Shown in pieces: positions 5,224 to 5,295 of a stretch of 64,000 nt of DNA. The DNA comes from a bacterium CG_4_9_14_3_um_filter_65_15 (GTDB lineage Bacteria > Krumholzibacteriota > Krumholzibacteriia > LZORAL124-64-63): contig PFVX01000056.1 in assembly GCA_002790835.1 (NCBI GenBank), positions 24,508 through 88,507 on the forward strand, written 5' to 3'. The notes below the pieces were generated by a model, which saw only the letters and a program-made list of their open reading frames with translations, did not search any database and was not told the DNA's origin. How positions within the stretch are numbered: the stretch's first letter is position 1; each line of letters begins with the position of its first letter. A program made the translations under genes and the position numbers.

Positions 5224-5295
5224 CGATCGACAAACGAACGCGCTCCGAAAATCCGCAGGTACGAGGACATTCGGAGCGCGTTCGTTTGTCGATCG
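5224..5295. repeat. Perfect 26-bp inverted repeat (hairpin: 26-bp stem, ~20-nt loop) between the queF start and the S8 peptidase stop
   Basis: Left arm cgatcgacaaacgaacgcgctccgaa and right arm ttcggagcgcgttcgtttgtcgatcg are exact reverse complements. No flanking U-tract on either strand. It explains the mirrored peptides DRQTNALR in two overlapping ORFs of the track. Confidence 0.8.

Follow-up and report, generated by a model that had tools for sequence, protein, structure and literature searches.

Stem-loops at or beyond the ends of bacterial genes have been described in several forms. In intrinsic terminators, a GC-rich stem of ~5-14 bp with a loop of 3-8 nt follows the stop codon on the sense strand and is itself followed by a free U-tract; in some of these an upstream A-rich tract pairs with the U-tract, and GC-rich bacteria also have gene-end hairpins that lack a U-tract. 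The REP and BIME elements of Enterobacteria and Pseudomonas, together with MITEs, are palindromic hairpins found between genes as dispersed, multi-copy families, and REPs protect upstream mRNA from 3' exonucleases. Hairpins such as lambda sib, which are cleaved by RNase III, an enzyme that needs roughly two helical turns of dsRNA, serve in retroregulation and in setting the segmental stability of operon mRNA. Upstream of queF and other queuosine genes, preQ1 riboswitches (classes I-III) are common. Finally, perfect stems can be created and maintained by template switching, as has been shown for rRNA and other RNA genes (Monttinen and Loytynoja 2022, PMC8794818).

Here, a long hairpin between a secreted peptidase gene and queF is compared with these systems. 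It lies in a 64,000-nucleotide stretch of a genome assigned to the Krumholzibacteriota, referred to below as the window. A first-pass annotation of the window had suggested a REP/MITE-like element, a protein-binding palindrome or an RNA structure regulating queF.

Results

Structure of the hairpin

Domain matches confirmed the first-pass identification of the flanking genes as queF and a T9SS peptidase gene. Both are on the minus strand, which is therefore the sense strand for the hairpin. The features of the locus, numbered from the start of the window, are as follows.

4746-5120, minus strand: queF, encoding preQ1 synthase, 124 aa (PF14489, TIGR03139)
5125-5132, minus strand: Shine-Dalgarno sequence of queF, GGAGGAGG, from sequence inspection
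5151-5181, minus strand: promoter-like motif, TTG-N20-TACATTGC, of the Bacteroidota -33/-7 type, from conservation and consensus
5217-5302, minus strand: complete RNA hairpin, with a 33-bp stem (32 Watson-Crick pairs and one G.U) and a 20-nt tip, from the predicted fold
5224-5249, minus strand: RNA 3' arm of the 26-bp repeat, from exact repeat matching
5230-5239, minus strand: U-rich stretch where a terminator tail would sit, GUUCGUUUGU
5240-5249, minus strand: 3' half of the inner stem, UUCGGAGCGC
5250-5269, minus strand: tip, consisting of U, GUCC, the loop UCGUACCUGC, GGAU and U
5270-5279, minus strand: 5' half of the inner GC-rich stem, GCGCUCCGAA
5270-5295, minus strand: RNA 5' arm of the 26-bp repeat, from exact repeat matching
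5280-5289, minus strand: A-rich segment that pairs with the U-rich stretch, ACAAACGAAC
5303-8482, minus strand: S8 serine peptidase with a T9SS type A sorting domain (TIGR04183) and Peptidase_S8 and FlgD_ig domains

The arms at 5224-5249 and 5270-5295 are complementary without a single mismatch and are 20 nt apart, exactly as first described; the plus-strand sequence of the former is CGATCGACAAACGAACGCGCTCCGAA, and its exact reverse complement occupies the latter. Scanning the window for stems with loops of 3-30 nt showed this to be the longest perfect stem at 26 bp, the runner-up being 13 bp, while the longest perfect stems in 20 shuffled copies of the window were of 9-15 bp only. The predicted fold of minus-strand RNA from 5110 to 5330 has a free energy of -133.5 kcal/mol (z = -11.8 against shuffles). 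On this strand the helix runs past the 26-bp repeat, through a G.U pair at 5223/5296 (where the plus strand has an A-C mismatch) and six further pairs, to give a stem of 33 bp spanning 5217-5302, the outer end of which directly adjoins the peptidase TGA at 5303-5305. RNase III substrates are expected to present at least ~20 bp of uninterrupted dsRNA beside a gene, and here 33 contiguous pairs adjoin the peptidase stop codon. Within the 20-nt 'loop', four more pairs form (GUCC/GGAU), closing a terminal loop of 10 nt. The complete 86-nt hairpin is more stable as sense RNA (-73.2 kcal/mol) than as antisense RNA (-67.1 kcal/mol).

With regard to termination, the locus has the stable, GC-rich, sense-strand stem-loop just 3' of a gene that is expected of an intrinsic terminator, but the stem does not lead directly into a run of U residues (about 5 or more of 8). 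Instead, GGCCCCACCAAAAGG follows the full stem, neither strand has a U-tract there and a terminator scan finds nothing at this position, which bears out the original view that a canonical terminator is not present here. Only behind the inner GC-rich stem, of 10 bp, does a U-rich stretch come, GUUCGUUUGU, and in the extended stem this stretch is base-paired. Canonical terminators are present elsewhere in the window, at 22998-23023 (plus strand) and 63455-63480 (minus strand), with stems of 9-13 bp and clear U-tracts.

The queF reading frame is open for 62 codons 5' of its ATG (5120-5306, minus strand), through the hairpin and as far as the base that precedes the peptidase stop codon, in the -1 frame relative to the peptidase; it includes an in-frame AUG within the hairpin loop, and neither feature is conserved in relatives. 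Several coding or recoding explanations of the hairpin were considered and rejected. Programmed -1 frameshifting or read-through into queF is contradicted by the lack of a slippery site, by a conserved C-terminal GRMALVK-stop and by two relatives that lack the spacer. A SECIS-like element after UGA does not fit the UAA or UAG stop codons of relatives, and a small ORF starting at the loop AUG would begin with AUA in the related locus L014 and meet an early stop in L013 (both described below). A role for the loop as an anti-Shine-Dalgarno sequence was likewise discarded, with only about 5 nt being complementary and these not conserved.

Elsewhere in the window, an AT-rich perfect 10-bp palindrome, ATTAATGAAT-gacc-ATTCATTAAT, lies at 52503-52526 over the start codon (52507) of a gene for a CCG / 4Fe-4S cluster protein, with a second palindrome, CCATGACCATGG, just 5' of it; judged from its sequence, the former looks like an operator.

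Orthologous loci

The exact QueF protein was recovered from ten contigs. These match the window at 99.96-100% identity, with the hairpin unchanged; they are one strain from many samples and are thus uninformative with respect to conservation. Relatives of the peptidase are mostly labelled Candidatus Krumholzibacteria, and the order peptidase-queF is retained in relatives with peptidases that are 56-70% identical. At loci L013-L018, where full-length peptidases are 62-70% identical, the order is a divergent QTMAN_N glycosyltransferase gene, the peptidase gene, queF, and then convergent radical SAM and queG genes; at L020, for which a narrower flank was fetched, the part of this order from the peptidase gene through queF and the radical SAM gene to queG is visible. 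The peptidases of L013 and L014 are 79% identical, which makes these loci sisters, the window peptidase is 63-68% identical to those of L013, L014, L015 and L020, and L016-L018 are more distant.

Two neighbouring genes merit comment. The glycosyltransferase encoded at 8722-9909 (plus strand; 395 aa) has a full-length QTMAN_N domain (E 4e-59), the N-terminal domain of tRNA-queuosine alpha-mannosyltransferase, together with a GT1 domain, and gave no match in NCBIfam. Its synteny with queF and queG is conserved across the six fully flanked loci L013-L018, and this gene order hints at a bacterial pathway to glycosyl-queuosine. The radical SAM protein encoded between queG and queF (3742-4737, plus strand) is an AmmeMemoRadiSam-system enzyme (TIGR04337, 334 bits); it is not a queuosine enzyme, yet the position of its gene is kept in all related loci.

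A hairpin was found right after the peptidase stop codon at six of the eight loci. The spacer between the peptidase stop codon and the queF ATG, and the hairpin that it contains, are as follows.

Window: spacer 182 nt; perfect stem of 33 bp
L014: spacer 179 nt; hairpin of 81 nt, about 28 pairs interrupted by one internal loop
L013: spacer 181 nt; hairpin of 11 + 4 bp
L015: spacer 80 nt; GC hairpin of 14 bp
L017: spacer 136 nt; hairpin of 14 bp
L018: spacer about 480 nt; 12 + 4 bp followed by UCUUGUU, canonical-looking
L016: spacer 19 nt; no hairpin
L020: spacer 9 nt; no hairpin

The first-pass annotation had held that complete absence of the element from orthologous intergenic regions would argue against a conserved regulatory role, and absence is evidently not total. 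In L013, L014 and L018 a U-rich stretch occupies the equivalent position in the hairpin. The hairpin of L015 sits right before the Shine-Dalgarno sequence of queF, leaving no room for a promoter. L016 and L020 have both genes without the hairpin, indicating that the element is dispensable, and their short gaps (6183-6203 in L016, 1491-1501 in L020) imply that the secreted protease is co-transcribed with the tRNA-modification gene or that queF is internally promoted. At queF loci with another gene upstream (L023-L030, L031-L034 and L035) there was no related hairpin, including those obtained from the contig look-ups P0129, P0132, P0141 and P0127.

Turnover of the stem and conservation of the tip

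The centre of the tip is 43.5 nt after the stop codon in the window, 44 nt in L014 and 45 nt in L013, a near-identical offset that indicates the same element in the same place. Since the spacers of these loci are of 182, 179 and 181 nt with a long, a long and a short stem, respectively, the long stem did not arise by insertion.

Because MAFFT aligned the hairpins in a way that did not agree with their structure, a covariance model (R1) built from the window hairpin was used instead. In the 132 kb searched, it matched only the window, at a single site, and L014. When the window was compared with L014 over the 37 modelled pairs, in an alignment that was fitted to the structure and so favours pairing, 19 pairs were identical and 11 had changed on both sides yet still pair; of the remainder, one had changed on one side, one was broken in L014 and five fell in an indel or internal loop. 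Although the alignment favours pairing, both sequences fold into long hairpins independently of it. Covariance analysis in relatives had been proposed at the outset, and the compensatory changes in the stem with respect to L014 support a structure at the RNA level.

Conversely, the tip is identical between the window and L014 at 18 of 20 nt, and one of the two differences turns a G.U into an A-U pair; of the 32 stem pairs that can be compared, 11 have changed on both sides. A strict pattern search showed the inner motif CCGRA..AURUCC-loop-GGAUU.UUCGG to be present also in L013, which keeps the tip sequence in part but in which the outer stem and the 10-nt loop have disappeared together. Conservation of the loop does not extend to L013, L015, L017 or L018.

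Sense RNA was 4-6 kcal/mol more stable than antisense RNA in five of the six orthologous hairpins, as a result of G.U pairs. This G.U-driven stability suggests that the element works as RNA from the coding strand and not as a site in duplex DNA.

A promoter-like motif between the hairpin and queF

The motif at 5151-5181 lies 31 nt 5' of the queF ATG and 36 nt 3' of the hairpin. It is conserved in the window, L013, L014, L017 and L018, always 3' of the hairpin and 31-45 nt before the queF ATG, in the form TTG/TTTG/TTTA, about 19-20 nt, TA(C/G)ATTnC, and it fits the -33/-7 promoter of the Bacteroidota sigma-A, the -7 consensus of which is TAnnTTTG (PMC9723704). The pattern TTG-N18-21-TAnnTT is rare, occurring only nine times in both strands of the window (128 kb), with seven of the nine copies being intergenic, a count that includes the copy upstream of queF, which crude gene calls had mislabelled as coding. 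In a genome of 65% GC, however, some enrichment of an AT-rich motif between genes is to be expected. Most copies are 31-95 nt 5' of gene starts; examples are those at 1356-1384 (plus), 12480-12508 (minus), 20997-21027 (plus), 40558-40588 (plus) and 5151-5181 (minus). On these sequence grounds, it is suggested that the lineage uses promoters of the Bacteroidota -33/-7 type.

Given the position of the motif, queF probably has its own promoter, with the hairpin in the 3' UTR of the peptidase message. The earlier placement of the hairpin in the 5' leader of queF is hence not supported. The idea of an RNA structure that regulates queF fares unevenly: the sense-strand G.U bias and the compensatory changes uphold an RNA structure, whereas the intervening promoter-like motif, and the absence of the hairpin where the peptidase gene is not upstream, speak against regulation of queF.

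Discussion

A probable gene-end element with its tail hidden

It is considered probable, on balance, that the hairpin is an unusually long, terminator-like element of the peptidase 3' UTR that protects the 3' end of the message and insulates queF. What is observed directly is the structure of the hairpin, its position and the conservation of that position, the replacement of stem pairs by compensatory changes, the greater stability of the sense RNA and the promoter-like motif before queF; that the hairpin terminates or stabilises the transcript is what we infer. According to this proposal, the stem-loop at the 3' end of the peptidase mRNA would stop or pause transcription leaving the peptidase gene or, alternatively, would define the mRNA 3' end and protect it against 3'-to-5' exonucleases; either action would insulate the separately promoted queF from upstream transcription. 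At its core is an unremarkable GC-rich hairpin, GCGCUCCGAA/UUCGGAGCGC, with the U-rich GUUCGUUUGU behind it, and the two together resemble a modest intrinsic terminator. What lies 5' of the core in this lineage (ACAAACGAAC and beyond) is exactly complementary to the U-rich tail and to the sequence past it, creating the 33-bp helix in which the tail is hidden. Selection on pairing may keep the arms matched, as may template switching during replication, in which one arm serves as template for the other; the two could also act together.

The resemblance to intrinsic terminators, taken together with the forms whose U-tract is paired and with the U-tract-less gene-end hairpins of GC-rich bacteria, is one of structure. 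It comprises the sense-strand GC-rich stem-loop right after the stop codon, the U-rich stretch behind the inner stem, the complementarity of the upstream A-rich ACAAACGAAC to that stretch and the placement before the promoter of the next gene. However, the stem of 33 bp and tip of 20 nt are well outside the usual dimensions of terminators, with the stem far exceeding what termination needs, and the much better conservation of the tip than of the stem between the window and L014 is not what would be expected of a plain terminator. Moreover, since it has no free U-tract behind the full stem, unlike the canonical terminators of the window, the hairpin would be out of the ordinary for this genome as a terminator, and perhaps inefficient. 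It may consequently act more as a barrier to 3' exonucleases, or as a processing site, than as an efficient intrinsic terminator. L016 and L020, which do without the hairpin, and L015, where a promoter would not fit between hairpin and queF, also count against the proposal.

Possible specific recognition of the stem or loop

A second explanation, which is thought unlikely but has several features of the locus in its favour, is that the hairpin is a specific recognition element, either a putative substrate for cleavage by an RNase III-type enzyme or a conserved loop that is bound by a protein or RNA partner. Cleavage by RNase III could destabilise the peptidase message, as with lambda sib, or split a read-through transcript into peptidase and queF parts. 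The likeness to lambda sib and to other RNase III-cleaved 3' or intercistronic hairpins, which is anatomical, consists of a long, near-perfect dsRNA stem 3' of a coding region and between genes on the same strand. The 33 contiguous pairs are longer than RNase III needs, the near-identity of the tip in the window and L014 stands out against a stem that has changed on both sides at about a third of its pairs, and the joint loss of outer stem and 10-nt loop in L013, the sister of L014, suggests that these features work as a unit. Against this, the loop differs in four other lineages with a hairpin, and since the long form is found in two lineages only, the apparent constraint amounts to one pairwise comparison.

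An elaboration of this explanation, which we hold to be decidedly improbable, is that the hairpin is a lineage-specific structured RNA with a sequence-constrained 10-nt loop (UCGUACCUGY on GUCC/GGAU) that is recognised by a putative dedicated factor, whether an RNase III-type enzyme or a loop-binding protein or RNA, with stem and loop kept as one unit in two lineages and lost together in L013. If this were true, the expression of the secreted peptidase and of the neighbouring queuosine genes would be coupled or uncoupled by the element.

Possible persistence by template switching

The palindrome could feasibly lack any function and persist merely through template switching that copies arm from arm, with no selection on the RNA. 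This is a documented mechanism (PMC8794818), and much of the locus is as it would predict: the arms are perfect reverse complements over 26 bp, with neither a G.U pair nor a mismatch, multi-base changes between lineages are mirrored on both arms, the stem has been extended with the total spacer length unchanged, so that long- and short-stem loci appear related by replacement as opposed to insertion, and the element has been lost or shortened in several relatives. In the present case, the mechanism is read from this pattern. However, most relatives keep a hairpin at the position, the sequence of the tip is conserved, and a process confined to DNA does not predict the G.U bias towards sense RNA in five of six loci. 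Persistence of this kind as the sole explanation is accordingly rated as quite unlikely, which is distinct from the contribution that template switching might make to the favoured gene-end element.

A possible leader structure of queF

That transcripts of queF begin at the peptidase promoter, or at one internal to that gene, and so include the hairpin, with the hairpin modulating read-through or the stability of the queF message, is deemed very unlikely. The hairpin is on the same strand as queF and 97 nt 5' of its ATG, the two genes are directly adjacent in L016 and L020, where queF must be co-transcribed or internally promoted, and the L015 hairpin adjoins the queF Shine-Dalgarno sequence. 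Position 5' of queF on the same strand is also what the hairpin shares with preQ1 riboswitches. The first-pass annotation had judged it not to be one, and indeed Rfam gave no match to preQ1-I, -II or -III or to another family, even at permissive thresholds, in 4700-5700 (E <= 10) or in the six orthologous loci (E <= 1); a match to a microRNA model was set aside as a spurious response to a long hairpin (49 bits against a threshold of 90). Further, the hairpin is a plain long helix, without the pseudoknot and A-rich-tail architecture of preQ1 riboswitches and without a conserved internal loop that resembles a ligand pocket. It is separated from queF by the conserved promoter-like motif, lying 5' of the likely queF promoter, and it tracks the peptidase gene and not queF, being missing 5' of queF wherever the peptidase gene is not the neighbour. 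The tempting link to queuosine (preQ1) riboswitch control is therefore removed as unsupported.

A mobile repeat or a DNA site as possible readings

An element of the REP/BIME or MITE type that landed between the peptidase gene and queF would, like the hairpin, be an intergenic, palindromic and stable stem-loop 3' of a gene. Protection of the upstream message from 3' exonucleases, for which REPs are known, is also among the roles suggested above for the hairpin. Such families are dispersed, whereas the hairpin is single-copy in the sequence searched and positionally conserved across genera. The 26-mer does not recur in the window with up to three mismatches allowed, and arm matching, the tip pattern and the covariance model revealed no further copy across the 64 kb of the window and about 70 kb from relatives; viral contigs, searched with arm and tip patterns, and plasmids also contained none. 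A search with an arm 20-mer of 185,579 representative genomes and of JGI metagenome contigs yielded only three single-arm chance matches (L001, L002 and L019), although the source organism is outside these collections, the window's own locus was not returned and the search is silent on copy number in the source genome. Neither flanking direct repeats nor a difference in length between orthologous loci (182, 179 and 181 nt with long or short stems) attests to insertion, and a homologous hairpin is at the same offset in other genera with a diverged stem. The REP/MITE-like option put forward at first reading is thus unsupported, and a mobile repeat is regarded as highly improbable.

Least probable of all, to the point of being nearly discounted, is the protein-binding palindrome of the first-pass annotation, a DNA-level site in the form of a dimeric-regulator operator or a cruciform: the dyad symmetry is exact and the inner part that is conserved (CCGRA..UCC / GGAUU..UUCGG) has a symmetry of its own, but outside the tip the arm sequences diverge and pairing alone is kept, unlike conserved operator half-sites, arms of 26-33 bp far exceed such half-sites, and a sense-strand G.U bias is meaningless for duplex DNA.

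Significance

The hairpin, though unusual, thus falls into a familiar class, and no new regulatory principle emerges from it. Rather, it provides a worked example of a gene-end hairpin from an uncultured, Krumholzibacteriota-like phylum, in which the paired stem turns over while position and tip stay fixed. As such, it should be useful for the annotation of transcript boundaries in these genomes, and for recognising promoters similar to those of the Bacteroidota within them. It also offers a natural case in which the upkeep of a perfect stem by selection can be weighed against its upkeep by template switching.
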